DNA of 64,000 nucleotides from an uncultured Candidatus Saccharibacteria bacterium (GTDB taxonomy: Bacteria > Patescibacteriota > Minisyncoccia > Phycocordibacterales > UBA9973), in the NCBI GenBank assembly GCA_964646765.1, contig CAZYIA010000001.1:1334-65333 (forward strand), given 5' to 3'. The notes beneath the pieces were generated by a model. It made no database searches. It worked only from the letters and a program-made list of their open reading frames with translations, and was not told the DNA's origin. Numbering within the stretch: the stretch's first letter is position 1; every line of letters starts with the position of its first letter. Below, in pieces: positions 3,798 to 41,972 of the stretch. The position numbers and the translations under genes are program-made.

Positions 3798-5192
3798 ATG
3801 TGGAAGAAACGGTTACTTGCCCTCCTCATCTTGCTTATCGGTGTAGGAGTTGCGTACTTTGTTTACGGTTCGGAATTAAAAAATAACACTGCGGGAAAAG
3901 AAATAGTTCCAATTCCAGCATGGCTCCCAAGTAAGCCGTTTAAACTTGGCCTTGATCTCTCTGGCGGCTCACACCTTGTGTATAAGGCGGACGTATCACA
4001 GCTGAAGGGGACTTCAGTTGCCGATGCAATGTCATCTCTTCGGGATGTTATTGAACGCCGCATCAATATCTTTGGTGTTTCTGAACCAGTTGTTCAAATC
4101 CAAAATAGTACTTTCTCAAATGGTGGTGAAAACCGTTTGATTGTTGATCTCCCTGGTGTTACCGACATCGAGAAAGCAATTACTATGATTGGCCAGACTC
4201 CGCTTCTTGAGTTCAAGACCGAGAATCCAAATCCACCAACAATTAATGCTACTGTCGGACCTGACGGTAAAGTAAACATTGGTTCTGTAGATCCTTCATC
4301 TCGATATAGTCCTACACAGCTCACTGGCCGCTATCTCTCAAAAGCAGAACTTCAGTTTGATCCAAATACAGGTCAGCCAGTAGTAACGCTTGTTTTTGAT
4401 GCAGAAGGATCAAAACTCTTTGAAGATATCACTCGAGCAAACGTTGGTAAAACCGTTGCTATTTTCCTTGATGGTGCGCCAATTTCTACTCCGACGGTGC
4501 AACAAGCAATTGTTGGTGGTCATGCTCAAATTACTGGGAACTTTACTCCACAAGAAGCGAAGCAGCTTGTTGGCCGCTTAAATTCAGGAGCGCTTCCAGT
4601 GCCAATTTCACTTATCTCAACGCAGACCATTGGTCCATCACTCGGTGCCGAAGCTGTAAAAGCTGGTCTGCACGCTGGACTTATCGGTTTCCTTATTATC
4701 GCTCTCTTCTTGATTCTCTGGTATCGTTTTCCAGGATTGATTGCGGTAATCGCACTCGGTATGTACATGGCCATTACACTTGCGCTCTACAAGTTAATCC
4801 CAGTCACACTTACTGCTGCCGGTATTGCGGGTTTCATTATCTCGATCGGTATTGCGGTAGATGCAAATATTCTTATCTTCGAACGTATCAAAGAAGAAAT
4901 TAGAAGTGGTCGCAATATTCCAGATGCGATTCACACTGGTTTCTCTCGTGCATGGTTCTCAATTCGCGATTCAAACATTTCCACTTTCATTACTTCAGTT
5001 ATTCTCTTCTGGTTTGGCACATCACTCATTAAAGGTTTTGCGCTTACTCTTATGTTGGGTGTGATTGTGTCACTCTTCTCAGCAATTGTTGTTTCTCGAT
5101 TATTCCTCTTTGCTATTGGTGTTGAACGAACGAATGCCTTTACCAGCTTCCTCTTCGGTTCCGGATTCTCCGGTGCCCGGGCGAAAAAATAA
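3798..5192 (+). CDS. secD: protein translocase subunit SecD
   Basis: 464 aa. LGLDLSGGSHLVYKAD motif, periplasmic domain and a C-terminal 6-TM bundle. Confidence 0.9.
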   Translation: MWKKRLLALLILLIGVGVAYFVYGSELKNNTAGKEIVPIPAWLPSKPFKLGLDLSGGSHLVYKADVSQLKGTSVADAMSSLRDVIERRINIFGVSEPVVQIQNSTFSNGGENRLIVDLPGVTDIEKAITMIGQTPLLEFKTENPNPPTINATVGPDGKVNIGSVDPSSRYSPTQLTGRYLSKAELQFDPNTGQPVVTLVFDAEGSKLFEDITRANVGKTVAIFLDGAPISTPTVQQAIVGGHAQITGNFTPQEAKQLVGRLNSGALPVPISLISTQTIGPSLGAEAVKAGLHAGLIGFLIIALFLILWYRFPGLIAVIALGMYMAITLALYKLIPVTLTAAGIAGFIISIGIAVDANILIFERIKEEIRSGRNIPDAIHTGFSRAWFSIRDSNISTFITSVILFWFGTSLIKGFALTLMLGVIVSLFSAIVVSRLFLFAIGVERTNAFTSFLFGSGFSGARAKK

Positions 5193-5210
5193 TCTGTTTG
5201 AGAGAATCCT

Positions 5211-6113
5211 ATGTTTATCATCAAAAACAAATTCATCTTTATCGGTATTTCAGCCGTATTAGTACTCCTTTCGATCGTCCTCGTGGCTACCCTTGGGTTA
5301 AAACCAGGTATCGACTTTAAAGGTGGGGCACTCACAGAAGTAACCTATCCTAATGGTCGACCAGCTATTGAACATATTCAAGCTGGTGTGGAGTCGCTTT
5401 CATTTGGCGAAACAGTAGTGCAGGAAGCTGGAGCAAATGGCGTCATTGTAAAGTCTCGTGATATCACTGATGCAGAACGTTCTTCGCTTTTGAAAGCCCT
5501 CGCTGTCGATAATGCAACGGTTGAAGAAAAGAGCTTTACTTCAATTGGTCCTTCAGTTGGCCGTGAACTTACTCGAAAATCAATCGTTGCGGTTATTTTA
5601 GTTGCTCTCGCAATCATTCTCTTCATCGCTTTTGCTTTCCGAAAAGTATCCGAGCCTGTTTCCTCATGGAAGTATGGGTTAATCGCTATTGTTACCTTGG
5701 TACACGATATTGCGATGCCTTCTGGTGTATTTGCGCTCCTCTCTTATTTTCATGGTGCAGAGGTTGATTCACTCTTTGTGGTAGCTCTGCTTACGGTTCT
5801 CGGTCTTTCTGTGTCAGATACGATTGTGGTGTTCGACCGAATCCGTGAAAATCTGAAATGGAATCCAGCACCAACATTTGCTGAAACAGTAGGGAAGAGT
5901 CTCTCTCAAACATTCACTCGATCAATTAATACTTCACTCACCGTTATTCTTGCTCTTCTCGCACTCTTCTTCTTTGGTCCAGAAACCACTAAGAATTTTG
6001 CTCTTGTGCTCGTTACCGGTATGTTCTTCGGAACGTATTCATCAATTTTTGTTGCAAGTCCTATCCTCGTGCTCGTTGAGGAATGGCAGCGAAAAAAGAA
6101 AGGAAAGAAATAA
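5211..6113 (+). CDS. secF: protein translocase subunit SecF
   Basis: 300 aa, lies directly after secD. SecF-type TM bundle (GLSVSDTIVVFDRIRE). Confidence 0.9.
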   Translation: MFIIKNKFIFIGISAVLVLLSIVLVATLGLKPGIDFKGGALTEVTYPNGRPAIEHIQAGVESLSFGETVVQEAGANGVIVKSRDITDAERSSLLKALAVDNATVEEKSFTSIGPSVGRELTRKSIVAVILVALAIILFIAFAFRKVSEPVSSWKYGLIAIVTLVHDIAMPSGVFALLSYFHGAEVDSLFVVALLTVLGLSVSDTIVVFDRIRENLKWNPAPTFAETVGKSLSQTFTRSINTSLTVILALLALFFFGPETTKNFALVLVTGMFFGTYSSIFVASPILVLVEEWQRKKKGKK

Positions 6114-6128
6114 TTTGTGTAGTAGAAA

Positions 6129-6157
6129 AGGCTCCCGAAAAAACGTGGAGCCTTTTG
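6129..6157 (+). terminator. intrinsic terminator after secF
   Basis: ggctcc-N11-ggagcc hairpin followed by a T run. Confidence 0.6.
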
Positions 6158-6356
6158 CTTAGCAAAGATGATGCCTTTGCCGTTACTTTGCCTGAAGTGG
6201 GAGCGATTCGCTATTGGTCCAAAATGAACCATCATTCTTTCCAATATATTGGTTCCGCAGTGACGCGACTAACAATAGAATAAGAAAGAAAAGCACGAAC
6301 CGACGCAACCTCTCCTGAGGACTTTGCCGGAGTAAGAAAAGTATATGCATAAAAAA

Positions 6357-6545
6357 TTAATAGTTTTTGGCGGGCACCGAATTGTTGGTAGGATTCATTG
6401 GCACTTTTACTGCTTGTATAAAGCGAGGATTTTTGACTGCACAAAATACAAAAGCAATTAGTATCATGCAAAATACTACAATGGCAATGTTGCCCTTGGT
6501 TTCTGGTTTCATAAGCGGTAAGGTTTTGATTTGATTTCTGCTCAT
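6357..6545 (-). CDS. small hypothetical single-TM protein
   Basis: 62-aa ORF with a strongly hydrophobic core IAIVVFCMILIAFVFCAV. Lies in the secF-lemA gap. Weak call. Confidence 0.25.
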   Translation of the reverse strand: MSRNQIKTLPLMKPETKGNIAIVVFCMILIAFVFCAVKNPRFIQAVKVPMNPTNNSVPAKNY

Positions 6546-6585
6546 AGTACAATGTGTTGGTTATTAGTCAAAATCCAGTTTTGCT

Positions 6586-7146
6586 ATGTTTATCCTTATT
6601 GGTATTGTTGTTCTTGGTATTCTCTACGCCATAATTTCATTTAACGGCTTTGTTACCCTTAAAAACCGAGCCCAGGAGGCTTGGGCTGATATCGAAGTGC
6701 AGTTGAAGCGTCGTTATGACCTTATTCCAAATCTCGTTAACACTGTAAAAGGGTACGCCTCACACGAGAGTGGTACCCTAGAAAAAGTGATTGCAGCTCG
6801 AAATCAGGCTGTAGCCACAATGAGTGGAACTGCTACAACTGAACAGAAAGCCCAGGCAGAAAATATGCTCTCGGGTACTTTGAAGTCACTCTTTGCTCTC
6901 TCTGAAAGTTATCCTGATCTTAAGGCAAACCAGAATTTCATGGAGCTTCAGCGCGAGCTCTCTGATACCGAAAATAAAATTCAGGCCGCTCGTCGTTTCT
7001 ATAACTCTAATGTTCGCGATCTTAATATTAAAATTGAGCAGTTTCCAGGCAATCTTATTGCTAATGCTTTTGCTTTCAAAAAAATGGATCTCTTCGACAT
7101 CCCAGATGGTGATGCTGCTCAGAATCCAGTAGAAGTTAAATTCTAG
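6586..7146 (+). CDS. lemA: LemA family protein
   Basis: 186 aa. N-terminal TM then FVTLKNRAQEAWADIEVQLKRRYDLIPNLV, which is the LemA signature. Confidence 0.85.
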   Translation: MFILIGIVVLGILYAIISFNGFVTLKNRAQEAWADIEVQLKRRYDLIPNLVNTVKGYASHESGTLEKVIAARNQAVATMSGTATTEQKAQAENMLSGTLKSLFALSESYPDLKANQNFMELQRELSDTENKIQAARRFYNSNVRDLNIKIEQFPGNLIANAFAFKKMDLFDIPDGDAAQNPVEVKF

Positions 7147-7150
7147 GCTT

Positions 7151-7534
7151 ATGTACTATTATCACTATTCACGTCCTAACTTTGGCCTTGGTATGTTTTG
7201 GCTCGCTATTGTTATCTTAATGATCGCTGCTTGGGTGAAGATGTTCCAAAAAGCGGGAAGAGAATGGTGGGAGGCTATTATCCCAATTTATAACGTATAC
7301 GTTCTTCTTAAAATTGTTGGCAAACCAGGCTGGTGGCTTCTTCTCTATTTGATTCCATTGGTGAATATTGTTGTTTCCGTTATTGTGAAGCACAATCTCT
7401 CAAAAAAGTTTGGTAAGGATGTTGGCTTTACTATTGGCCTGATTTTTCTCCCGTTTATTTTTTTACCGATCTTAGGATTTGGTGACAGTGTCTATACAAA
7501 AGAAGAAATTATTAGCCAGGCTCCGACAGCGTAA
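7151..7534 (+). CDS. small polytopic membrane protein (DUF-type)
   Basis: 127 aa, 3-4 TM. Conserved-looking block KMFQKAGREWWEAIIPIYNVYVLLKIVGKPGWW. Confidence 0.6.
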   Translation: MYYYHYSRPNFGLGMFWLAIVILMIAAWVKMFQKAGREWWEAIIPIYNVYVLLKIVGKPGWWLLLYLIPLVNIVVSVIVKHNLSKKFGKDVGFTIGLIFLPFIFLPILGFGDSVYTKEEIISQAPTA

Positions 7535-20303: not shown

Positions 20304-21614
20304 ATGGAAAGTCCTAGTTTTTTAGAGAGGAAAGAAGAAAAATCAACTGCAAAAGAACTCCTCAAAGGTTTTAAGGAGGGGATGAAAGATCTTACTAGCT
20401 GGAAACCTACTAGTCTGGATACTACTATTTTTCAGACCTACTTGAGGAGGTTCCTTATTGTCTCACTTGCTCTTTGGGCAGCTTCTATACCAGTTCAAAT
20501 TGGTAAACAGGGAGTAGACAGAATTAAGTACGAGCAAAGTAAAAAAAAGTTTCAAGACAAATACAAAGATTTGTCTGTTGAGTCGATATCACGGTTACAC
20601 CAAAGAGCAGTAGAAGCCTACGGGGAGCACTATGTAAATAGTATTCCAGGCGTGAGCTTAGTGAGTGGTGATGCCCAAGAAAAAGTTATTAAAAGGATGG
20701 AAGCTGATAAACCAGAAGTTTTTACTCTGGCAGGAAGTTTCAATATGGGCGACTGGGATAAAGAATTTACTCATTATGAAAAAGAATACGGGGATCTACT
20801 TGATGACGTAACGTTTAATAAAGAAGAATCATCGGAGTATATTATTCTAAAGCAGGATACTGTTTTAGATGTAAACCACAACGAATCTTATACTCATTGG
20901 GCTGAAAGAATGAAAGCATCCAAAGATACTGTTCCCGCAGAAGAATTTCTCTCTAAAATGGAAGTCTTTTTCCCGAAAGGTTGGATAAAAGGTGAAGTAC
21001 AATCTTTCACTTTTAAAGAGCAATATCCAAAACTTACTGCATATGGCGCAAAATCACAGACAGCTGGGGAAGTAGGAAATAATAAAGAACTATTCTTATA
21101 TGGAGTTCAGACAGAGGAATCACAAGGGGAGACTTTAGCTCATGAATTAGGTCATGAGAACGACTGGGAGCGGTCAACCAAACTAAGCCCAGAACAGAGA
21201 TTAGAACTTTTAATGAAAGTGCATGATCGTGTGACTTCAGAGAATAGGTTTCGCTCAGATTATGTAGAGTCCATTTTAAGTGGGGAATTGTATCCAGAGA
21301 TGAAAGATCCGAAAGTCATTCTTCAAACTGCCACTGTTGAGTATTGGGCTGAGATAACAGGTGAATACTTCTCAAACGGAGTTGGCAACTTAGCTTCTGA
21401 AGACGTTGAAGTTATTGAATGGATGATACAAAAAGTGGATCCAGAATTTTTAGCCACACACTCGGCAGGAGGTATTTTTGCTGCTTCGTATAGGGACCAC
21501 AACATACGACAAACAAAGCTCTTTGATGAAGCTTTTGAAGAAGAGAATTCTGACAGCCTAAATCAAAAAGATTATTTAAAAATTGCGTATTATCGGCGAT
21601 ATCTTAATTTATAG
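20304..21614 (+). CDS. membrane-anchored hypothetical protein with HExxH metallopeptidase-like motif
   Basis: 436 aa with one TM near residue 50. HELGHENDWER motif near residue 280. AGA/AGG-rich codon usage unlike host genes. Confidence 0.5.
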   Translation: MESPSFLERKEEKSTAKELLKGFKEGMKDLTSWKPTSLDTTIFQTYLRRFLIVSLALWAASIPVQIGKQGVDRIKYEQSKKKFQDKYKDLSVESISRLHQRAVEAYGEHYVNSIPGVSLVSGDAQEKVIKRMEADKPEVFTLAGSFNMGDWDKEFTHYEKEYGDLLDDVTFNKEESSEYIILKQDTVLDVNHNESYTHWAERMKASKDTVPAEEFLSKMEVFFPKGWIKGEVQSFTFKEQYPKLTAYGAKSQTAGEVGNNKELFLYGVQTEESQGETLAHELGHENDWERSTKLSPEQRLELLMKVHDRVTSENRFRSDYVESILSGELYPEMKDPKVILQTATVEYWAEITGEYFSNGVGNLASEDVEVIEWMIQKVDPEFLATHSAGGIFAASYRDHNIRQTKLFDEAFEEENSDSLNQKDYLKIAYYRRYLNL

Positions 21615-21628
21615 AGGGTACATTTTCT

Positions 21629-22018
21629 ATGATTAAACTTAATTGTTACTCAAAAGAGGAATTTCTAGGCGTTCTCGCGGTTAAGAATGGTTTTTTTACG
21701 ATAGAAAGTAAAAATAAGAGTTTTACTACTGCTCTACAGGAACTTTCAGAACAAGGGATTCCTGTTGCTAATATTGATAGCACAGTGAGTATTATATTTC
21801 CAAAAGATTCACGGTATATCTTTTTCTTAGAAAAGTTTCTTATAAAGTGTGGTTTTCGTATTATTCGTGTTGATACCGAACTCATCACAAAATTAAAACA
21901 GAAAGTAATGACCAATGATACGTCGGTTTCAGAAAGTTCATTTAACGAAATCTATGGGCAGCTTTCTGTCTATGAGGCGAGCCTATTACTGCGAACCCTA
22001 GATTCGCTACCTAACTAG
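21629..22018 (+). CDS. small hypothetical protein
   Basis: 129 aa with no recognisable motifs. Same atypical codon usage as the upstream gene. Confidence 0.4.
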   Translation: MIKLNCYSKEEFLGVLAVKNGFFTIESKNKSFTTALQELSEQGIPVANIDSTVSIIFPKDSRYIFFLEKFLIKCGFRIIRVDTELITKLKQKVMTNDTSVSESSFNEIYGQLSVYEASLLLRTLDSLPN

Positions 22019-22241: not shown

Positions 22242-25200
22242 ATGTCGAAACTTGCAGCGACACGACCAAAAAAGTACTTTTCAAAGTACAAGGAACCTCT
22301 TGTTGAGTTTCCAAATCTCCTTGAGACCCAACTCATCTCGTTTGAGTGGTTGGTGGAGAAAGGCCTCGGTGAGGTCTTCAAAGAATTCTCACCAATTAAC
22401 GATTACTCGGGCAAAAAATTTCAGCTCGATTTCGTTTCGTTTACCTTGGGTGAACCAAAGTATGACGAGCACTACGCAAAAGCTAATAAGCTTACCTACG
22501 AAGGTCAGCTCAAAGCTCGCGTAAAGCTTTTTAATAAAACGATCAACGAAACCAAAGAGCAGGAAATCTTCATGGCGGATGTTCCGCTCATGACGGCACA
22601 CGGTACCTTCATCATCAACGGTGTTGAGCGTGTTATCGTTCCACAGCTTGCTCGTTCGTTCGGTATTTTCTTTACTGAAGACGAAGTAAAAGGCAAAAAG
22701 CACTTTGGTGCAAAAATTATTCCAGCTCGCGGTGTTTGGATCGAAATTGAAACTGATACCGACGGCACTCTTGTTGTTCGTATCGACAAGAAGCGCAAAT
22801 TCCCAGCCACGTCACTTCTCCGCGTGCTTGGCCTCGCTACTGATGCTGATATCTTAGCTGCCTTTAAAGACAGTGGATACGAAGCCCAGATCAAAGCTGG
22901 TCTCGAAAAAGATCCAGCAAAGACTCAGGGTGAAGCATACGTTGAAATTTATAAGCGTCTCCGTGATGGCGATCTTGCTACCGCTGATAACGCTAAGGAA
23001 TTTATCAACTCTCTTTTTGGAAGTGAGCGTTACGACCTTTCTCCAGTTGGTCGTTTCCGCTTCAACAAGCGCTTCGAAAAGAGTATGGACGAGAAAGAAC
23101 TTGCTCGTCGCACTATTTCCGCAGAAGATGTTGTGGTTGTTTTGAACAATGTTCTTACACTCAACGCTACCCCAGGGGCAAAGGCTGATGATATCGATCA
23201 CCTTGGTCAGCGCCGTGTTCGTTACGTTGGTGAAATGCTCCAGCAGAAAGTTCGTGTTGGTATGACACAGATTAAGCGTAATGTGCAAGACCGTATGTCG
23301 ACTATCGACACCGGAACAACGCTTCCAATCGCTATTGTTAACCAGCGTCCACTCCAGGCTCGTATTAAAGAATTCTTCACCACGAACCAGCTCTCACAGT
23401 TCATGAACCAGGAAAATATCTTGGCTGAGCTTGAACATCTCCGCACTCTTTCTGCGCTTGGTCCCGGAGGTCTCACTCGTGAGCGTGCAGGTCTTGAAGT
23501 TCGCGACGTGCACACTTCTCACTACGGTCGTGTATGTCCAATTCACACTCCTGAAGGTCCGAACATCGGTCTTATTCTTCACACTTCAACGTACGCTCGT
23601 GTAAACGACTTCGGTATCATCGAAACTCCATACATCAAAGTGAAAGACGGTAAAGTTACCGGCGAAGTGGTATACCTCAACGCTCTTGAAGAAGAGAAGT
23701 ATGTCATCGCTCACGCAGGTACAAAAGTAGACGATAAAGGTAAAATTGTTGAAGAAAAAGCTGAAGCTCGTATTCAAACTGAACCGGGTCTCGTTGATCG
23801 CGATAAGGTAGACTTTATCGACGTTGCAACCAACCAGGCATTCTCAATCGCTACTTCAACTATTCCATTCCTTGAGCACGACGACGCAAACCGCGCACTC
23901 ATGGGAAGTAACATGCAGAAGCAAGCAACTCCATGTATCGTTCCAGATGTACCACTTGTGGCAACCGGTATGGAAGAGCATATTGCTCGCGAAAGTGGCC
24001 GCGTAGCAGTTTCTCGAAGCGAAGGAGAAGTTGTTGCCGTAGATGCTCGTGAAATTACGGTAGAAGACAAAGCAGGTAAGAAGCACGTCTACAAACTCAT
24101 TAACTTCGAACGAACAAACAACTTCACCGTATTCCATCAGCGTCCAATCGTTTCAGTAGGTGATAAAGTGAAGAAAGGCCAGGTACTTGCTGACACCTCT
24201 TCATCATCACAAGGTCAGGTTGCTCTCGGACAAAACGTTCGCGTAGCCTTCATGGCATGGAACGGTGCAAACTTCGAAGACGCGATTATTCTTTCAGAAC
24301 GTCTCGTAAAGAACTCAAAATTTACTTCTATCTACGTTGAAGAATTCGTTTGTCTCGTTCGCGATACTAAGCTTGGACCTGAAGTAACCACTCGCGATAT
24401 TCCAAACGTTGGTGAACAGAAACTCAAAGATCTCGACGAAGAAGGAATTATCCGCATCGGTGCTGAAGTTCGCGAAAACGATATTCTCGTTGGTAAAATT
24501 ACTCCAAAGGGTGAAACCGAACTTACTCCTGAAGAACGTCTCCTCCGATCAATCTTTGCTGAAAAGGCTCGCGACGTGAAGGATACTTCACTTCGTATGG
24601 AACACGGTAAGCGTGGCCGCATTATCGGTGTGAAAATTTTCTCACGCGAAGCAGGTCATCAGCTTGAATCTGGCATCATCAAAAAAGTAGTTATTGAACT
24701 CGCTCAAGTACGTAACATTTCAGTAGGTGACAAGCTTGCTGGACGACACGGTAACAAGGGTGTTATCTCAACCATTCTTCCTGAAGAAGATATGCCATAT
24801 ACCGCAGACGGTCAGCCAGTAGACATGATTTTGACTCCGCTCGGTGTGCCATCACGTATGAACCTCGGACAAATTCTTGAAATGCACCTTGGTTTGGCTG
24901 CTGACACGCTTGGTTACCAGGCAATCATCCCACCATTCTGTGGCGCAACCGAAGGTGAAATCCGCGGTGAACTCAAAGCTGCTGGATGGCCTGAACACGG
25001 ACGCATCAAACTCTACGATGGTCGCACTGGTGACGCATTCGAACAAGATATCGCCGTTGGTGTGATGCACGTTTTGAAACTGCACCACATGGTGGAAGAC
25101 AAGATTCATATGCGTTCAATTGGACCGTACTCACTCATTACGCAGCAGCCACTCGGTGGTAAAGCACAAGGTGGTGGTCAGCGTTTCGGTGAAATGGAAG

Positions 25201-25448
25201 TGTGGGCGCTCGAAGGTTACGGTGCAGCGTATGCTCTCCGTGAAATGCTTACGATCAAGTCTGACGACATCATGGGCCGCTCACAAACGTTCGACTCAAT
25301 CATCAAGGGTGAAGATATTAAAACGCCAAACGCTCCAGCATCATTTTCTGTTATGTTGAACTACCTCCGTGGTTTGGCTCTCGACGTTGATCTCAAAAAG
25401 AAGGTCGGAAAGAATACTAGCGACGACTCCGCCGAAGGAGACGAATAA
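22242..25448 (+). CDS. rpoB: DNA-directed RNA polymerase subunit beta (short form)
   Basis: 1068 aa. Universal RpoB blocks such as [28 protein letters not shown] and NMQKQATP. Confidence 0.95.
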   Translation: [1068 protein letters not shown]

Positions 25449-25466
25449 TATCTAACGAGTTAATCT

Positions 25467-28400
25467 ATGGGAAAAGTTATAGATACAACTGACTTTGACT
25501 TCATTACACTCTCACTCGCGAGTCCTGAACGCATTCGCGAATGGAGCTACGGCGAAGTAACGAAGCCTGAAACAATCAACTACCGTACCGGCCGATCTGA
25601 ACGCGGTGGTCTCTTCGACGAGCGCATTTTCGGTCCAGAAAAGGACTACGAATGTTACTGTGGTAAATACCGACGTATTCGTTACAAGGATATTGTGTGT
25701 GAAAAATGTGGCGTGGAAGTAACTCGCTCTATCGTTCGCCGTGAACGCATGGGCCATATTGAACTTGCTTCACCAGTTGCACACATTTGGTTCCTCCGTG
25801 GTGTACCTAGCCGCATGAGTATTCTCATGAACATCACTGTTTCAGATCTTGAAAAGGTGATCTACTTTGCTGGTTACATCATCACCAAAGTACATGAGGA
25901 CGAAAAAGCTACGGTTATTAAAGACCTCGAAAGTGAATTTAAGGCAAAGGTAAAGAGTGCACAGGACGACGAGACTAAGGAAAAATTGAAGACGCTTCTC
26001 CAGAGTACTAAACGCGAAATCAACGAAATCTATGAAGGTCGTGTATTGAACGAAATCCAGTATCACCACTTCTCACTTAAGTACGGTACTTGTTTTGAGG
26101 CTTCAATCGGTGCTGAAGCAATCTTTAATCTCTTCAAGAATCTTGATCTCAAGCGTCTTAAAGATATTACCGAAGCTTCAATCGAAAAGGCTGGTAACCT
26201 TGAGCGTGAAAAACTTGAAAAGCGTCTCTCAGTTATTCGCTCAATGATGCACGCTTCTATTCGTCCTGAATGGATGTTCCTCACTGTCATTCCAGTTATC
26301 CCACCAGCACTCCGTCCGATGGTGGCTCTTGATGGTGGTCGCCATGCAACTTCAGATTTGAACGACCTCTACCGTCGCGTGATCAACCGAAACAACCGTT
26401 TGAAGAAGCTCAAGGAAATTGGCGCGCCAGACGTTATTCTCCGTAACGAAAAGCGTATTCTCCAAGAAGCAGTTGATGCTCTCATCGACAACTCAATTGC
26501 AAGTCAGAATGATTCTCAGGCAATGAGTCAGTCACAGCGTCGCGCACTCAAATCTCTTTCAGATAACTTGAAAAGTAAGCAGGGTCTCTTCCGTCAAAAC
26601 CTCCTCGGTAAGCGTGTAGACTACTCAGGCCGTTCAGTTATCGTGGTTGGTCCTACGCTTAAACTCTCACAGTGTGGTCTTCCAAAACACATGGCGCTCG
26701 AACTTTTCCGTCCGTTCGTCATTTCAAAACTCATTGAACGTGAATTCGCTTTCAACATTCGCGGTGCAAACCGTTTGATTGAAGAAGGTGTTCCAGAAGT
26801 GTGGGCAATTCTTGAAGAAGTGACAAAAGGGAAGTACGTGCTCTTAAACCGTGCACCAACCCTTCACCGTCTCGGTATTCAGGCATTCACACCAGTCTTG
26901 ATTGAAGGAAATGCTATTCAGGTGCACCCACTCGTTTGTTCTGCGTTCAACGCTGACTTCGACGGTGACCAAATGGCTGTCTACGTTCCGCTTTCTGATG
27001 AAGCACAGGCTGAAGCTCGTGAGCTCATGGCTTCAAACAAAAACCTTCTTAAGCCACAATCTGGTGAACCAATCGTAAACCCATCACAGGATATTATTCT
27101 TGGTTGTTTCTGGATGACTAAAGAAGTGAAGGGTGACAAGGGTGAAGGCATGCTCTTCTCTTCACCGAATGAAGCGATTACTGCCTACGACTTCGGTATG
27201 GTTTCATTCCGCGCTAAGATTAAAGTTCTTCCAACTGAGAAGCCAAAGTACGCTCCGTTTAATGGTTTGCCATTTGAAACAACGATCGGACGACTTCTCT
27301 TTAACTCGGTGCTTCCAGAAGACTTCCCATACTTGAACGAAGAAATCACCAAGAAGCGTATGTCGAACTTGGTAGATGATTTGATTCTCCGCCACGGTAT
27401 TGATGGTACTCCTGATATTCTCGACAAGATCAAGAACTTCGGTTATCGCTACGCAACTCGTTCAGGAACAACCTTCGGTATGGACTCTGTTCGTATTCCG
27501 GAAGGCAAGCCTGCACTCATTGCCGCTGCTCGAAAAGAAGAAGAAGAAATCATCAGTCAGTATAACGACGGTCTTCTTTCGAAAGAAGAAAAGTACGAAA
27601 AGGTTATTGAAATCTGGGAGCGCGCAAAGAAGGACGTTGAAAAACTCATTCCAGAAACACTTGCGAAAGCTGGTTCAGTGAACGATATGGTTACCTCTGG
27701 TGCCCGTGGTTCAGTTGGTCAGGTTACACAGATGGCCGGTATGAAGGGTCTCATCATTAACACTCAGGGCCGCACAATTGAATTCCCAGTTATCCCGTCA
27801 TATAAGGAAGGTCTTTCTCCGATTGAATACTTCATTATTACCCACGGTTCACGTAAAGGTCTTGCCGACACAGCGCTTAACACCGCAAAGGCAGGTTACC
27901 TCACTCGTCGTCTTGTTGACGTTGCTCAAGACGTTGTTGTTACCGAAGAAGATTGTGGAACTAAGGAAGGAAAGTGGGCAACTGCTGATAACGTGCTCGG
28001 TATTGAAATTTCTCTCACCAAAAACCTCCGTGGTCGTGTGCTTGCTGCTGACTTGAAAGACGCAAAGGGCGAAACTATGTTCAAGCGTGGCACACTTCTC
28101 TCAAAGGACGATGCTTCAAAAGTTGAAAAAGCTGGTATCGAAAAGGCATACATTCGCACACCACTTACCTGTAAGTTACATCACGGTATCTGCCGACAGT
28201 GTTATGGTCTTGACCTCGGTCGCAACAAGCTCGTTGAGCTTGGTGAAGCAGTTGGTATCGTTGCCGCTCAAGCTATCGGTGAACCAGGAACCCAGCTTAC
28301 ACTCCGAACCTTCCACGCCGGTGGTGTGGCACAGGTGGACATTACTCAAGGTTTGCCACGTGTTGAAGAAATCTTCGAACGTCGTACGCCAAAGAGTCCA

Positions 28401-29132
28401 GCTGTCGTTTCTCACGCAGATGGCGAAGTAATCGAAATCAAAGGTGAAGGCCGCGACAAAGTTCTTGTTGTGCTCAATGACACGAAGGGAGACAAGAAAT
28501 CAAACACCGTTGAATATCCAATTCCATTCCGCCGAAATCCGCTCGTAAAATCTGGCGACCGCGTTCTTTCTGGTCAGATCCTTACTGACGGTTCAGCTGA
28601 TATCAACGAAGTATTTAAGTACGGTGGCCGAGAAGCTGCAGAAGAATACATCGTTCGAGAAATCAACAAAGTGTACGAACTCCAGAGTGCATCAATTTCT
28701 CGTAAGCACATTGAAATCATCATTCGCCAAATGTTCTCACGCCGACGCATTAAGGATGCCGGTGATACCGACTTCTCACCAGGTGAGGTTGTTGAAAATG
28801 TTGAATTGATGGACGAAAACAAGCGCGTTTCTCTTTCAAACACTGAAGAAGCAAAAGCTGATGAAATCGTACTTGGTATTTCTGAAACTGCTCTTACTAC
28901 AAAGAGCTGGCTCTCCGCGGCATCGTTCCAAAATACAAACCGCGTGCTCATTTCAAACGCGATTCGTGGTGGTATTGATCGTCTCCGTGGTCTTAAGGAA
29001 AACGTTATCATTGGCCGCTTGATTCCGGCTGGTACTGGTTTTCCAAATTCACCGACAGCCGCTCGTGTGCAGGTAGAAAAGAAACCCGTCATCACTCCTA
29101 CAGAAGAAGTTACTGAAAAAGTCGAAGCGTAA
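25467..29132 (+). CDS. rpoC: DNA-directed RNA polymerase subunit beta'
   Basis: 1221 aa. Zn-binding CxxC...CxKC, and [16 protein letters not shown] catalytic motif. Confidence 0.95.
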
Positions 29133-38497: not shown

Positions 38498-38722
38498 AAT
38501 AATGGTTTCGTTTTAGTTGTTACCAGAAGAGGGAAGTCTCCTCTGATAACAACTAAAATTGTATGTCAAAAAGTGACGGTTTTCGTTACATTACCATGAT
38601 TTTGCAGTTAGTCAAAAGTTCTTTTTTAGTCGAAGGGCCATCGATCTAATAAAAGGAGGGTCCATTGAAAAACAGATCAAAGTCTGCTAATCTATTGTGG
38701 CTACAGGGTTTTTTAGCCCAGT

Positions 38723-38795
38723 GCCGCCTTAGCTCAGTTGGTAGAGCAACGCTTTTGTAAAGCGAAGGTCCTCGGTTCAAGTCCGAGAGGCGGCT
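38723..38795 (+). tRNA. tRNA-Thr (anticodon TGT)
   Basis: Acceptor GCCGCCT/AGGCGGC, D-arm GCTCAGTTGGTAGAGC, anticodon loop TTTGTAA, T-arm CTCGG-TTCAAGT-CCGAG, discriminator T. 73 nt. Confidence 0.85.
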
Positions 38796-38922
38796 CAGAA
38801 AATTTTCTATTTAGTCATGATGTATGCGAGGTATGTCCTGCGCGAAGGTACGTCGCTTGAGAAGCGGGAGCGGATGGGGCATCTGCGGACACGGCTAGTG
38901 CTGAACGATAAGAAAATTACGC

Positions 38923-41646
38923 TTATGGCTGAGTAGTTCCTTGATTCAGTTTTAATGAAAGCAAAGCGACGTCCTTCTTGGAGTTTCTCTTTTCCAAACC
39001 GTCTAAGACCTTCTTTTCTGTCTCGGGTGTCCAATATATCTTCAATTTTTCCTTCGCTCTCGTGATTGCTGTATAGAAAATATTATGCGTTATCATTTCC
39101 TCTACCTCGTTTGTAATGACAACTTTAACTGAATCAAACTCAAGACCTTGTGCCTTGTGGATTGAAACCGCATAGGAAACCTGAAATGGCACTATCGCAT
39201 CGGAAGAAGAGTCGTCATCATCTTCATCGGTGCTGGGGTATTTGTTGACTGAAAAACGGATAATGGACTTACTTCCGTCAGGTGTGTTGCCAACTAGTTG
39301 GAAATCGTAGCCTTCTGCATCAAGCTCGTTTATTACTTTATCGATCTCGATATCGAACTGGATCCTGTCATTATTTTTGGTAATACCAACGATCTTACCC
39401 TTAAGGTTGTTATAGATGAGCGGAGAGAATCTATTCATCTCATTGAACAGTACAGGGTCACCAATTTTGTAGGTGTGAACTCCCCAGTACATCGGACTGT
39501 TCTTGTTGTTGCTTTGGAGAAATCTATTGATGTTGTTGATGCCGTATAATCCATCGTAATTCAGACAGAGCACGATCTCATCCTCCTCGGCATTCTCAAA
39601 GAAAGATTGATCAAGCTTCACGGAGTATTTATTCTTTGTTATGTGTTCAAGAATATCGGTGTCTATGTTCCGTACTTTATTCCACAAGGTGATCAACTTC
39701 TCGTTAGTGCTACGGTATGGCTTAGTCAGCTCAAACCTAGATGTTTGAGGAATGAAGGACTGGGCAATATTGAACCAGTTACCAAAGTTTATAGACTCTA
39801 TCTGGAACACATCTCCGACCAAGACGAGTAATTTGAACTTTGCTTTTTCCAGAACCGCACGCATATCCGAATTGCTGACGGTACTACATTCATCAATAAT
39901 CAATATGTCGTAGTCGAAATCTGTATTTTTAGGCGAAAGGAATTTACTGATCGTCTTGTATGTACAGTTAGCGGCTTGAACCTTTCTTCTCAAGTTATCT
40001 ACCGCAGGGTTGGTGTTCGCTAGATAAAGTTTGGTCTTATCGTTAAAGAAATTCGATATGTGATTTATCATTGTCGACTTTCCAGTACCAGCGGCACCAT
40101 ACACCAACGCCACCTTTGATTTTTCAAACAATCTTCTCAAAGCATCCTTCTTTTCTTCACAGTCGACAATGTGCGTAGATGTCTGAAGCCAAGAATCGAT
40201 CGAATTAGCGTAGTTGCGAATACCTGTAGATGAAAGCTCGGTCAACTTTTTGATGATGTACAAGGCAGCCTCTTCATATCCCTTGATGTAGATATGGTCT
40301 TTAAACTTCTCCAACTTGCGATGCCCGTGTTTGAAGTATAAGGAAGAATTGTATTTCTGGATCAATGCATCGACGTCTTTAAACCCATCCGTGTCGCTCA
40401 TAGGAGTGTAGAGCTGACCGTCAATTTCGTTTTTATTTGTAATAAACTTTGCGAACATTTCATGCTCTCGACCTGTTGCATCAATGCAATCAAATAGGTC
40501 ATGTGCTCTCGGCTTATGGTTGAGAGGCGAGGAATTGAAAGGCATCTCATCAAACGGAATACACCCGAATTCTAGTTTCAAATTTGAGAGGTTCGGACAC
40601 TCATCGTGGCTATATTGCTGCTTGATGATTTTGTTATTGAGTCTGTAAAGCAGGTATCTGACTACATTTGTACCGGCTTTCTTTGCTTGCACAAATGCAC
40701 GGACATTATCCAGTACATCAAAAATGTATTTAGTCTTTGCCGCGCTTACAATCTTGGACCTTATGCTACCGTAGTAATCGTCAGATAGGTCCATGAACTC
40801 TGTAAGATTCAGTCCTGTCTCCGTCAGAAACCTCATTAACTCCTTGTACTCATTTCCACTTTGGATCTTGGGATCTTTTCCGAAGATTTTCGCAAAGTTA
40901 TTCAACTCACAAGGACGGATAGACACCTCCCAATCGTTAATGATTTGGATGGGCATGTTCTTATCCACGATCTTTATGCTGTCGGTAGTCAAAGATAGCT
41001 TCACGGCATAGTTGTCAGATATATCTAACTTTGTAAAAGCAATGATTCTGTCGAACTTGCTTGCGTAGTCATTAGCGCGTGTAAAAGTTACCTCGTAATA
41101 CACTTCGTAATTGACGAAGAAGGGTTTTACCTTTTGAATGTAGAACCTGTCGCTATTAACACCTTTGGGGTCTGCAGGTGGCTGATGGTTTATTTTCTCA
41201 GCAATTTTTTCGTGATACTCCTTGAGGACGGAATCGGTATTGATGGGAAAGGCATCTATATTCTTGAGAACTTCCAAGTTGTGAGTCTTCTTTAGGTAGG
41301 ACTTTATCTTCAAAAGATACTCGTAATACTTGAGCATCAGCCTCTCCGAATTTTCTTCGTCAGGCGTGTAATGAGAAATTGTCTTTTGAAGAAGCTTGTG
41401 GAAATTACTCAAAAACCGCAGATCGCCCCTGGTCTTAACGTAAGCTTCGCCACTCTTGATGTTTTCGTATGAGTTATCTATGTCCTTGCCGTTGCTGAAT
41501 GCTTTCAGCGAGATGTGGTCGACAAAGTTTCTAAGTTGCGACAGTATGTTCTGTGACAGCAACCCTCTTTCGGAAGTATCAAACCTGTCGATATTGGCAG
41601 ATATGACTTTGTCTGTATTTAAGATTTCAGTATCGACTTTGCTCAT
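38923..41646 (-). CDS. standalone 907-aa fusion protein: uncharacterised N-terminal region with HEPN-like R-x4-H motif plus a C-terminal RecD/TraA-type SF1 helicase
   Basis: Walker A VALVYGAAGTGKST. Walker B/DExx ILIIDECS. Motif III LVLVGDVFQ. Motifs V/VI AVSIHKAQGLEFDSVKVV and TAITRAK. LRNFVDH at residues 38-44. AGA/AGG-rich codon usage. Flanked by tRNA-Thr and its inverted partial copy. Confidence 0.75.
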   Translation of the reverse strand: MSKVDTEILNTDKVISANIDRFDTSERGLLSQNILSQLRNFVDHISLKAFSNGKDIDNSYENIKSGEAYVKTRGDLRFLSNFHKLLQKTISHYTPDEENSERLMLKYYEYLLKIKSYLKKTHNLEVLKNIDAFPINTDSVLKEYHEKIAEKINHQPPADPKGVNSDRFYIQKVKPFFVNYEVYYEVTFTRANDYASKFDRIIAFTKLDISDNYAVKLSLTTDSIKIVDKNMPIQIINDWEVSIRPCELNNFAKIFGKDPKIQSGNEYKELMRFLTETGLNLTEFMDLSDDYYGSIRSKIVSAAKTKYIFDVLDNVRAFVQAKKAGTNVVRYLLYRLNNKIIKQQYSHDECPNLSNLKLEFGCIPFDEMPFNSSPLNHKPRAHDLFDCIDATGREHEMFAKFITNKNEIDGQLYTPMSDTDGFKDVDALIQKYNSSLYFKHGHRKLEKFKDHIYIKGYEEAALYIIKKLTELSSTGIRNYANSIDSWLQTSTHIVDCEEKKDALRRLFEKSKVALVYGAAGTGKSTMINHISNFFNDKTKLYLANTNPAVDNLRRKVQAANCTYKTISKFLSPKNTDFDYDILIIDECSTVSNSDMRAVLEKAKFKLLVLVGDVFQIESINFGNWFNIAQSFIPQTSRFELTKPYRSTNEKLITLWNKVRNIDTDILEHITKNKYSVKLDQSFFENAEEDEIVLCLNYDGLYGINNINRFLQSNNKNSPMYWGVHTYKIGDPVLFNEMNRFSPLIYNNLKGKIVGITKNNDRIQFDIEIDKVINELDAEGYDFQLVGNTPDGSKSIIRFSVNKYPSTDEDDDDSSSDAIVPFQVSYAVSIHKAQGLEFDSVKVVITNEVEEMITHNIFYTAITRAKEKLKIYWTPETEKKVLDGLEKRNSKKDVALLSLKLNQGTTQP

Positions 41647-41693
41647 GAGAATATTTACATTTTAGCATTTTTCGGTCTTATTTTATTTAAACA

Positions 41694-41724
41694 AAAAAGA
41701 GCGATTCATATCGCTCTTTTTTGT
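41694..41724. terminator. bidirectional hairpin terminator
   Basis: aaaaaagagcgat-tcat-atcgctctttttt. Confidence 0.6.
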
Positions 41725-41807
41725 ACAACCTTTAGCTTCGTGGGTCACAGCTCAACCTAGAGCATGTGGGTCATCAAAACTACCAGGTTGTCAATGCGGG
41801 TTTAGTG

Positions 41808-41897
41808 AGATTCGAACTCGGCGACCCGTTTTTTCCAAGAAGTAGCTCTACAAACACTTTGTTAATAAAAATAACCTTATAATATAAGGCTTTTTTT
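41808..41897 (+). terminator. two tandem hairpin plus T-run elements
   Basis: cgggt...acccg followed by tttttt at 41808-41845. Perfect 15-bp palindrome ccttataatataagg followed by ttttttt at 41875-41897. Confidence 0.45.
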
Positions 41898-41921
41898 GGG
41901 GAAGAGGGTAGACCTGTTTAT

Positions 41922-41957
41922 TACAAAAGCGTTGCTCTACCAACTGAGCTAAGGCGG
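41922..41957 (-). repeat. exact 36-nt copy of the tRNA-Thr 5' half (nt 1-36) in inverted orientation
   Basis: Reverse complement is GCCGCCTTAGCTCAGTTGGTAGAGCAACGCTTTTGT, identical to 38723-38758. It diverges after the anticodon with no matching 3' half. Confidence 0.8.
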
Positions 41958-41972
41958 CAATATTTGTTTTGG

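Follow-up and report, generated by a model that had tools for sequence, protein, structure and literature searches.

A PDC-S53-family helicase gene with a HEPN-like N-terminal bundle in a decayed tRNA-bordered island of an uncultured Saccharibacteria bacterium

The PDC set comprises 145 defense candidates, each predicted because at least one member lies inside a BREX, DISARM, or type I restriction-modification (RM) locus, and was released as predictions ahead of any phage assay (10.1101/2024.01.29.577857). Among HEPN proteins, giant fusions of HEPN, transglutaminase, superfamily 1 (SF1) helicase, Vsr, and wHTH (winged helix-turn-helix) modules belong to RM-like/defense systems (PMC3710099), and DARNA (PD-T7-3) is a HEPN tRNase that is turned on by single-stranded DNA (ssDNA) and carries a canonical R117-x4-H122 motif (10.64898/2026.02.22.705581). 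The canonical R-x4-6-H motif of HEPN domains sits at the end of helix 3 or the start of the helix 3-4 loop, beside a conserved acidic residue of helix 2; some active HEPN families have dropped the Arg or the His and use substitute residues, and noncatalytic HEPN domains with a lost motif are also known (PMC3710099). Here we describe a gene on the minus strand of a 64,000-nucleotide stretch of DNA (i.e., the window; contig CAZYIA010000001.1, positions 1,334 to 65,333) from an uncultured Candidatus Saccharibacteria bacterium. The gene encodes a protein of 907 amino acids (aa) with a RecD-type SF1B helicase motor and is a newly seen member of the already catalogued candidate family PDC-S53.

The protein matched the PADLOC model PDLC05035 (i.e., PDC-S53) from end to end (E = 0; 1358.4 bits; residues 1 to 901 against profile positions 1 to 895 of 900), and its N-terminal 495 residues alone matched PDC-S53 only (E = 5.8e-190). 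These matches place the 907-aa protein in the candidate family, whereas a first-pass annotation of the window, made from the letters alone, could map it to no named system; the family is a candidate by prediction only. The coordinates and the length of the open reading frame (ORF) given in that annotation were borne out. Homologues number in the thousands and carry generic database names (i.e., RecD-like helicase or AAA ATPase); the best 120 share 64 to 91% identity with the protein, and their sources are Patescibacteria, Bacteroidota, and Bacillota. Among 185,579 GTDB species representatives, the family occupies at least 558 loci, in a patchy spread over at least 15 phyla and one Nanoarchaeota metagenome-assembled genome (MAG), at 51 to 87% identity. 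An exhaustive search with residues 1 to 480 yielded 940 representative clusters at 50% identity, the complete ones about 900 aa long, and the N-terminal module was always fused to the motor in these representatives.

The four-module architecture consists of a HEPN-like bundle, an OB-like domain, a helical/winged-helix region, and a RecD-type SF1B motor (Table 1). An alignment of 87 diverse homologues, to which all conservation counts out of 87 refer, yielded AlphaFold2 models of the full-length protein (predicted local distance difference test [pLDDT], 90.7; predicted template modeling score [pTM], 0.88) and of the N-terminal module (pLDDT, 94.2; pTM, 0.90). The motor has a RecD-type fold, with 1A and 2A RecA-like domains and an SH3-like 2B insert. 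Each of the SF1B motifs quoted in the first-pass annotation was found in the translation, and the set (Walker A, Walker B [DE], and motifs III, IV, V, and VI) is complete and conserved: K523 (Walker A), D585 (Walker B), D612 (motif III), R645, and R863 are invariant, and E586 (Walker B) and Q615 (motif III) are kept in at least 90% of the homologues. The scores against the NCBIfam models TIGR01448 (129.3 bits; equivalog cutoff, 500) and TIGR01447 (106.5 bits; equivalog cutoff, 310) fall far under the RecD/RecD2 equivalog cutoffs, and the protein is therefore a RecD-type SF1B motor rather than a RecD or RecD2 orthologue. Translocation in the 5'-3' direction on ssDNA is predicted from family membership. 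Domain and fold searches found no relaxase, primase, or nuclease domain in the 907-aa protein, including the relaxase/TraA or primase fold that had been raised as a possibility for its N terminus, and matches to NCBIfam TraA/TraI models were confined to residues 435 to 647 (20 to 72 bits versus cutoffs of 590 to 2212). A conjugative relaxase-helicase of the TraA/TraI type was rejected because the N-terminal HUH/MOB domain is missing and the N terminus folds instead as HEPN-like, OB, and helical modules.

The N-terminal region had previously been treated as one domain (residues 1 to 480) without a recognizable match apart from a HEPN motif. Residues 1 to 495 indeed carry no Pfam domain, but the model divides the region into the HEPN-like bundle, the OB-like domain, and the helical/winged-helix region. 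In the model, residues 1 to 155 form a four-helix up-down bundle of the HEPN type with an extra helix. The string LRNFVDH, cited as the HEPN motif, is present at residues 38 to 44; its reading as R39-x4-H44 does not hold, because only 32 of the 87 homologues keep H44 (R39, in contrast, is invariant), both residues lie in helix 2, and the canonical motif site instead reads Q87-x4-H92. At that site, H92 is near-invariant, S91 is kept in 79/87, and Q87, five residues ahead of H92, is kept in 61/87, with Arg in its place in 3/87. One turn past R39 in helix 2, position 43 is Glu or Asp in 84/87. The HEPN-like fold proposed for the N terminus stands, while the motif on which it had been based fails and no HEPN, Abi_2, or Swt1 profile matches. 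We read residues 1 to 155 as a HEPN-fold domain that would carry a rebuilt, noncanonical polar cluster; its RNase activity is putative, although possible.

The five-stranded β domain that follows gave weak but consistent OB-fold matches to RPA70N, SSB, PriB, RecO, LEF-3, and MCM-N. Five of its residues are near-invariant (Y169, Y184, Y213, K197, and E185; each of the three Tyr residues is kept in at least 79/87), and near-invariant residues of this kind are typical for ssDNA-binding surfaces. Residues 244 to 495 matched winged-helix proteins only (ScpB and OmpR-type) and no Pfam family, and probably contain a winged helix; the invariant residues F365 and P369 and a GCIPFDxMPF motif all lie in this region. 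RecD2-type OB/HhH Pfam domains were not detected in residues 161 to 495 of 10 diverse members.

Table 1. Features of the PDC-S53-family gene and its surroundings in the window
Feature	Coordinates	Strand	Basis or remark
Complete ORF, 907 aa, PDC-S53-family protein	38923..41646	minus	ORF call, PADLOC, full-length model, dN/dS
HEPN-like helical bundle, residues 1-155	41182..41646	minus	Helices 4-21, 24-50, 60-90 (kinked), 97-122, 139-153
R39 codon, helix 2 (24-50)	41530..41532	minus	Invariant (87/87); alignment and model
H44 codon, "HEPN histidine" of the first-pass annotation	41515..41517	minus	Kept in 32/87; alignment
H92 codon, helix 3 end/start of helix 3-4 loop	41371..41373	minus	86/87; alignment, model, PMC3710099
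Five-stranded β domain, OB-like, residues 165-243	40918..41154	minus	
Helical region with short strands, probable winged helix, residues 244-495	40162..40917	minus	
SF1B RecD/RecD2-like helicase core with SH3-like 2B insert, residues 496-907	38923..40161	minus	
Walker A, GAAGTGKS	40075-40098	minus	In helicase core
AT-rich promoter-like leader	41647..41690	minus	Extended -10 TGCTAAAAT about 12 nt ahead of the ATG
15-bp perfect hairpin with A-/T-tract flanks, bidirectional terminator-like	41691..41724	.	z = -5.4
Degraded tRNA-Ser 3' remnant (T-arm and acceptor, CGCCGAGTTCGAATCTCACTAAACCCGCA)	41795..41823	minus	Aligned to tRNA-Ser of relatives
Inverted copy of tRNA-Thr 5' half, right island border	41921..41959	minus	39 nt, 100% complementary to 38722-38760
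Large serine recombinase remnant, last ~35-40 codons	38814..38936	plus	Stop 38934-38936; tblastn and DNA alignment
Intact tRNA-Thr(tgt), 3' end = left island border	38723..38796	plus	ARAGORN; Rfam tRNA, 68.9 bits

The helicase is the sole intact gene of a decayed mobile defense element. It stands alone, as previously noted, with no partner gene in the window, and the intact tRNA-Thr reported next to it was found again. The inverted tRNA copy on the other side exists and is perfect, but it is 39 nt long rather than 36 nt, and comprises one upstream base plus tRNA positions 1 to 38, through the anticodon loop. On the opposite strand, the recombinase remnant aligned with residues 408 to 442 of the 444-residue recombinase of a relative (L007; loci of relatives are numbered with the prefix L) at 51% identity (E = 3.6e-6; tblastn over the whole window) and with that of L003 at 38% identity (E = 2.6e-5). 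It overlaps the 3' end of the helicase gene by 14 nt, the same as in relatives, and is truncated at the tRNA-Thr 3' end. In L003, L006, L007, and L008, a complete tRNA-Ser lies directly ahead of the helicase, and the tRNA-Ser remnant of the window aligned with its 3' end; ARAGORN and Rfam predicted no tRNA at the position of the remnant. The leader contains a block, TAAAATGnTAAAATATAAATATT, that is conserved in an alignment with relatives, and has no Shine-Dalgarno sequence; judged by its sequence, it would act as the promoter, and the helicase mRNA may have no leader, or a very short one. The hairpin, which was matched in stability by none of 200 shuffles, lies upstream of this promoter-like region, and its position is kept in L003, L006, L007, and L008. 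Of the hairpin terminators previously ascribed to the gene, one strong hairpin was thus found, but upstream; no significant fold was found in the 126 nt that follow the helicase stop codon (z = -0.9). Since the leader, the hairpin, the tRNA-Ser remnant, and the recombinase tail persist, the island, 3.1 kb long, is what remains of a larger mobile defense element. The "tRNA-flanked island" of the first-pass annotation keeps its tRNA borders, but neither an integrase nor a direct repeat of the tRNA 3' end was found: the recombinase is a remnant only, and the repeat is an inverted 5' half.

No second copy of the tRNA-Thr 3' half occurs in the whole window. Simple integration does not account for the inverted half: whichever way the element had gone in, direct repeats or split halves would be expected. 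As the inverted repeats are perfect, either orientation of the 3.16-kb segment keeps one intact tRNA-Thr; a flipped segment would put the tRNA-Thr on the minus strand directly after a 195-aa gene. Logan contigs (k = 31) break at the repeat (L001 and L002 span 38731 to 41950, and L094 ends at 38751), and the same-organism Logan contig stops 30 nt into the 39-nt repeat, which is an assembler break. Positions 41824 to 41920, a 97-nt stretch that separates the tRNA-Thr half from the tRNA-Ser remnant, include an AT-rich palindrome, CCTTATAATATAAGG, with A/T runs on either side; neither this stretch nor the one downstream had a further match in any of the relatives' loci retrieved (blastn-short). 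A search for an empty site returned, from metagenomes queried with the flanking dipeptidase, one 2-kb contig at 40% identity and, from the protein database, the same organism only, followed by relatives at 61% identity or less; the 51%-identical relatives were not syntenic, and no island-free relative was found.

A fuller form of the element is seen in relatives. The loci L003 and L007 to L009, which are the closest relatives, share the order tRNA-Ser, leader with hairpin and AT-rich block, helicase, convergent large serine recombinase (intact, with a 14-nt overlap onto the 3' end of the helicase), and a type I RM operon into which a ThsB-TIR gene is embedded. Neighborhoods were counted over 84 nonredundant loci at a distance of 10 kb. 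A type I RM component was present in 21 loci, a serine or tyrosine recombinase in 26, and either a recombinase or type I RM in 40. The helicase lies between or beside hsd genes in L016, L062, L063, L079, and L083 (flanked on both sides in L062 and L063), and a large serine recombinase adjoins it directly in L003, L007, L018, and L030. Recurrent PADLOC matches among 150 adjacent ORFs were type I S subunits, SoFic, AriA, and mad5. The largest neighbor cluster, a serine recombinase, reached 19/84 loci and none was near-universal, which indicates a single-gene organization; a conserved partner gene was rejected, as no neighbor cluster is widespread. The recurrent annotated clusters were recombinases, hsd genes, methylases, and TnpV. 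No type IV secretion system or coupling-protein cluster was among the larger neighbor clusters annotated, and the recurrent clusters annotated contained no transfer genes; within these clusters, the conjugative or plasmid transfer operons that had been considered for the homologues were not seen. A general link between the family and tRNAs was likewise rejected: a tRNA lies directly upstream in 4/74 loci, all from the near clade of the window or other Patescibacteria. Full-length members were found in two phage genomes (among 50,697 phage records) and on five plasmids. In both phages, the helicase is part of an accessory cassette whose strand is opposite to that of the replication genes; a type IIS RM system and recombinases are its neighbors in one phage, and methyltransferases are its neighbors in the other. 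In a Lactiplantibacillus plasmid of 10.6 kb, the helicase comes after rep, and the two genes share one strand.

Several individual loci showed further features. In L007 (9476 to 16032) and the equivalent parts of L008 and L009, hsdM and hsdS are separated by a ThsB-like TIR gene together with two ORFs that lack annotation, and the type I RM array of these loci is a stacked defense island on a Patescibacteria-type contig. In L003 (2550 to 2980), a complete tRNA-Ser(tga) is followed by about 290 nt with a hairpin and then by a second, partial 3'-end copy before the helicase leader; this repeat looks like an att-type direct repeat and suggests that the ancestral element integrates in the 3' part of tRNA-Ser. 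In L062 (Avibacterium gallinarum; about 4499 to 7183), HsdR-like ORFs, both on the opposite strand, lie on either side of the helicase, which may have been inserted into or between hsdR genes. The phage homologues L090 and L091, about 46% identical to the protein in the window, both have a hypothetical 278-aa ORF upstream (6146 to 6982) at identical spacing, and each is followed by a small ORF (annotated as a transcriptional repressor in Terrisporobacter phage TPDSL_ph1 and as a hypothetical protein in Erysipelothrix phage phi1605); the phage subfamily may be a two- or three-gene cassette. A full-length homologue at 57% identity is present in the Nanoarchaeota (DPANN) MAG (L050; 1388 to 4078), and three MAGs labeled "uncultured Gammaproteobacteria" (L011, L015, and L065) carry homologues at 84%, 69%, and 67% identity whose nearest relatives are Patescibacteria. 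These archaeal and gammaproteobacterial copies reflect either wide transfer or binning errors.

The helicase gene is horizontally acquired. The foreign Arg codons reported in the first-pass annotation were confirmed by counts (AGA plus AGG, 67% in the gene versus 9% in the rest of the window), and the G+C content at third codon positions is 0.51, versus about 0.27 to 0.45 elsewhere in the window. Compared with the L007 and L003 proteins (88 to 89% identical), the ratio of nonsynonymous to synonymous substitution rates (dN/dS) is 0.01 to 0.07 in all four modules, with nonsynonymous differences (pN) of 0.03 to 0.11 and synonymous differences (pS) of 0.62 to 0.91. These values show very strong purifying selection on all four modules; the N-terminal module is as constrained as the motor, and the genes are old lineages rather than recent copies. 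Elsewhere in the window, two plus-strand ORFs at 20304 to 21614 (436 aa) and 21629 to 22018 (129 aa), directly upstream of 1068-aa and 1221-aa ORFs (22242 to 29132), have the lowest G+C content (0.38 and 0.35). The 436-aa ORF uses AGA/AGG for 59% of its Arg codons, similar to the helicase gene, and neither ORF has a Pfam match; 20304 to 22018 may be a second foreign insertion.

We tentatively read the protein as a stand-alone nucleic acid surveillance protein of the PDC-S53 family that arrived in a tRNA-targeting helicase-recombinase-type I RM element, since decayed; we give this reading slightly less than an even chance. A defense function as such appears about evenly balanced. The previous proposal of a defense or mobile-element role for this lone gene agrees with the PDC-S53 match, the counts of type I RM components and recombinases, and the phage cassettes. 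The most likely function is stand-alone surveillance against phages or other mobile genetic elements by an ssDNA motor with an OB sensor. The OB-like domain, with its three near-invariant Tyr residues, and the 5'-3' ssDNA motor would engage invader ssDNA, ends, or replication intermediates, and ATP-driven translocation could then directly disrupt invader replication. Alternatively, translocation might license the N-terminal HEPN-like domain, such that RNA would be cut and the infection aborted. The site would be noncanonical, with H92 at the canonical His position and R39 and E43 supplied from helix 2. This variant-HEPN RNase effector is a possible but more speculative step, which we consider unlikely. 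In its boldest form, PDC-S53 proteins would be motor-gated ribonucleases in which the OB sensor and the ssDNA translocase switch on the rebuilt HEPN site, and phage replication intermediates would trigger RNA cleavage and abortive infection; we regard this, too, as unlikely.

Several results weigh against this surveillance reading or its HEPN-like effector step. Type I RM is absent within 10 kb from 63 of the 84 loci, and the window itself has no adjacent defense gene. The canonical R-x4-6-H is missing from the N-terminal domain. A profile of 36 N-terminal domains retrieved no HEPN chain from the PDB at E ≤ 10, a Pfam scan of each member at E ≤ 10 retrieved no HEPN family, and PADLOC matched the N-terminal module to PDC-S53 only and to no HEPN model. 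As none of these permissive scans matched a HEPN family, a HEPN assignment at the sequence level was rejected. A Foldseek search of the N-terminal model against the PDB gave no HEPN and no significant match, only weak OB matches, and the clustering of R39, E43, and H92 in space is putative. We found no paper naming PDC-S53 and no experiment on the family in the searchable literature; the family is not among the PDCs assayed in PMC12881386 or PMC11514479, and neither DefensePredictor nor a BREX survey describes it. Finally, identities of 64 to 91% across phyla, together with saturated synonymous sites, exceed the usual conservation of defense genes; a conserved enzymatic function serving mobile elements would fit them as well.

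A related explanation confines the defense to the DNA level: the motor would strip or unwind replication or recombination intermediates of the invader, and the HEPN-like bundle would be a noncatalytic scaffold or a module for oligomerization or nucleic acid binding. The loss of the canonical Arg, the empty HEPN profile searches, the documented noncatalytic HEPN domains (PMC3710099), the invariance of the helicase motifs, and the compact full-length model (pTM, 0.88), which is consistent with the N terminus as a motor accessory, all suit this explanation. However, the domain as a whole is only moderately conserved, and the invariance of R39 and near-invariance of H92 and E43 within it resemble the pattern of an active or ligand-binding site more than that of a pure scaffold, and the active HEPN families that do without Arg or His show that alternative residues can serve (PMC3710099); we consider a purely DNA-level role fairly unlikely. 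The main rival is an accessory "Dda-like" helicase that aids the replication, recombination, or establishment of its own mobile element or prophage, with no role in host defense. The whole protein, including the N-terminal module, falls into phrog_325, "Dda-like helicase" (PHROGs; E = 2e-76), full-length members reside on phages and plasmids, one of them beside a rep gene, a large serine recombinase is directly adjacent in four loci, and the unusually high conservation suits a core enzymatic role. In the window, however, about 35 codons are left of the recombinase, whereas the helicase is intact and under strong purifying selection; thus, the helicase was kept without a functioning element. 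Both phage copies lie opposite the replication-module strand beside RM or methylase genes, copies occur between or beside hsd genes, and only two full-length matches were found in the phage records; we consider such an accessory role unlikely.

Two further explanations fare less well against the surveillance reading. The protein might act as an RM-dependent guard or back-up effector with PrrC-like logic, kept inactive by a type I RM complex until a phage inhibits that complex. The family entered PADLOC through at least one instance that lies within a locus of the BREX, DISARM, or type I RM kind, hsd genes lie nearby in a quarter of the loci and directly adjacent in several, and a similar action has been proposed for HEPN fusions to RM-type helicases (PMC3710099). 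However, three quarters of the loci, including that of the window, have no type I RM nearby, which makes an obligate RM partnership unlikely, and there is no conserved partner cluster; we judge the guard role to be very unlikely. That the gene is a housekeeping RecD2-type repair helicase of the host is extremely unlikely and effectively refuted by membership scores and context: the equivalog cutoffs are missed widely (129 versus 500 bits and 106 versus 310 bits), the codon usage is foreign, the distribution is patchy over at least 15 phyla at 51 to 87% identity, the surroundings are those of mobile elements and RM genes, and the N-terminal module is unrelated to the OB/HhH Pfam domains of RecD2.

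PDC-S53 is a large family, extraordinarily conserved across phyla and already flagged as a defense candidate, for which we found no phenotype, mechanism, or domain analysis in the searchable literature. The anonymous label of "RecD-like helicase/AAA ATPase" is here replaced by a concrete four-module architecture, with residues named for mutation (i.e., K523, R39, E43, H92, and the OB tyrosines), and the tempting R39-x4-H44 "HEPN motif" is corrected. The locus in the window is a defense island decaying around one retained gene. If the family defends, a compact single-gene system would be added to those known, which may be especially relevant to the Patescibacteria, with their small genomes and few known defenses. 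If the motor-gated RNase reading were true, a new coupling of DNA sensing to a HEPN domain within one chain would be present in a very widespread family, whose members occur across at least 15 phyla, the Patescibacteria with their reduced genomes among them, and in a Nanoarchaeota MAG.

Compared with known systems, the protein differs from RecD (a RecBCD subunit) and RecD2, the SF1B 5'-3' DNA helicases, to which it is only 17 to 18% identical; these have no counterpart to its 495-residue N-terminal module and are core repair genes, whereas the gene in the window is mobile and patchily distributed. Phage T4 Dda (439 aa) is a motor-only replication accessory, unlike the window protein, and the "Dda-like" label of phrog_325 is generic and uninformative on the N-terminal module. 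With HEPN RNases (HepT/MNT-HEPN toxins, Csx1/Csm6, AbiV, and AF0298-type), the protein has in common the four-helix up-down bundle, to which a further helix is added, the location of a near-invariant His (H92) at the helix 3 end, and a conserved acidic residue in helix 2 (E43); it differs by Q87 rather than Arg at position -5 and by the invariant R39 in helix 2, and no sequence-profile or Foldseek link connects it to them. The giant HEPN-SF1 fusions share a HEPN-type module, an SF1 motor, wHTH-like parts, and an RM/defense context, but the window protein is much smaller, lacks Vsr or any other DNase and the transglutaminase, and has a RecD-type motor; PADLOC revealed no homology to them, the best named matches being typeIV_RecD (62 bits) and GajB (28 bits). 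PrrC is a functional analogy only. DARNA, which lacks a motor and an OB domain and is not homologous by PADLOC, resembles the protein in proposed logic only, namely ssDNA recognition licensing a HEPN domain within a single protein. The closest counterpart is PDC-S53 itself, a "guilt-by-embedding" prediction, with which the gene shares the end-to-end hidden Markov model match, the single-gene organization, and the association with RM and mobile elements, and from which no feature distinguishes it.

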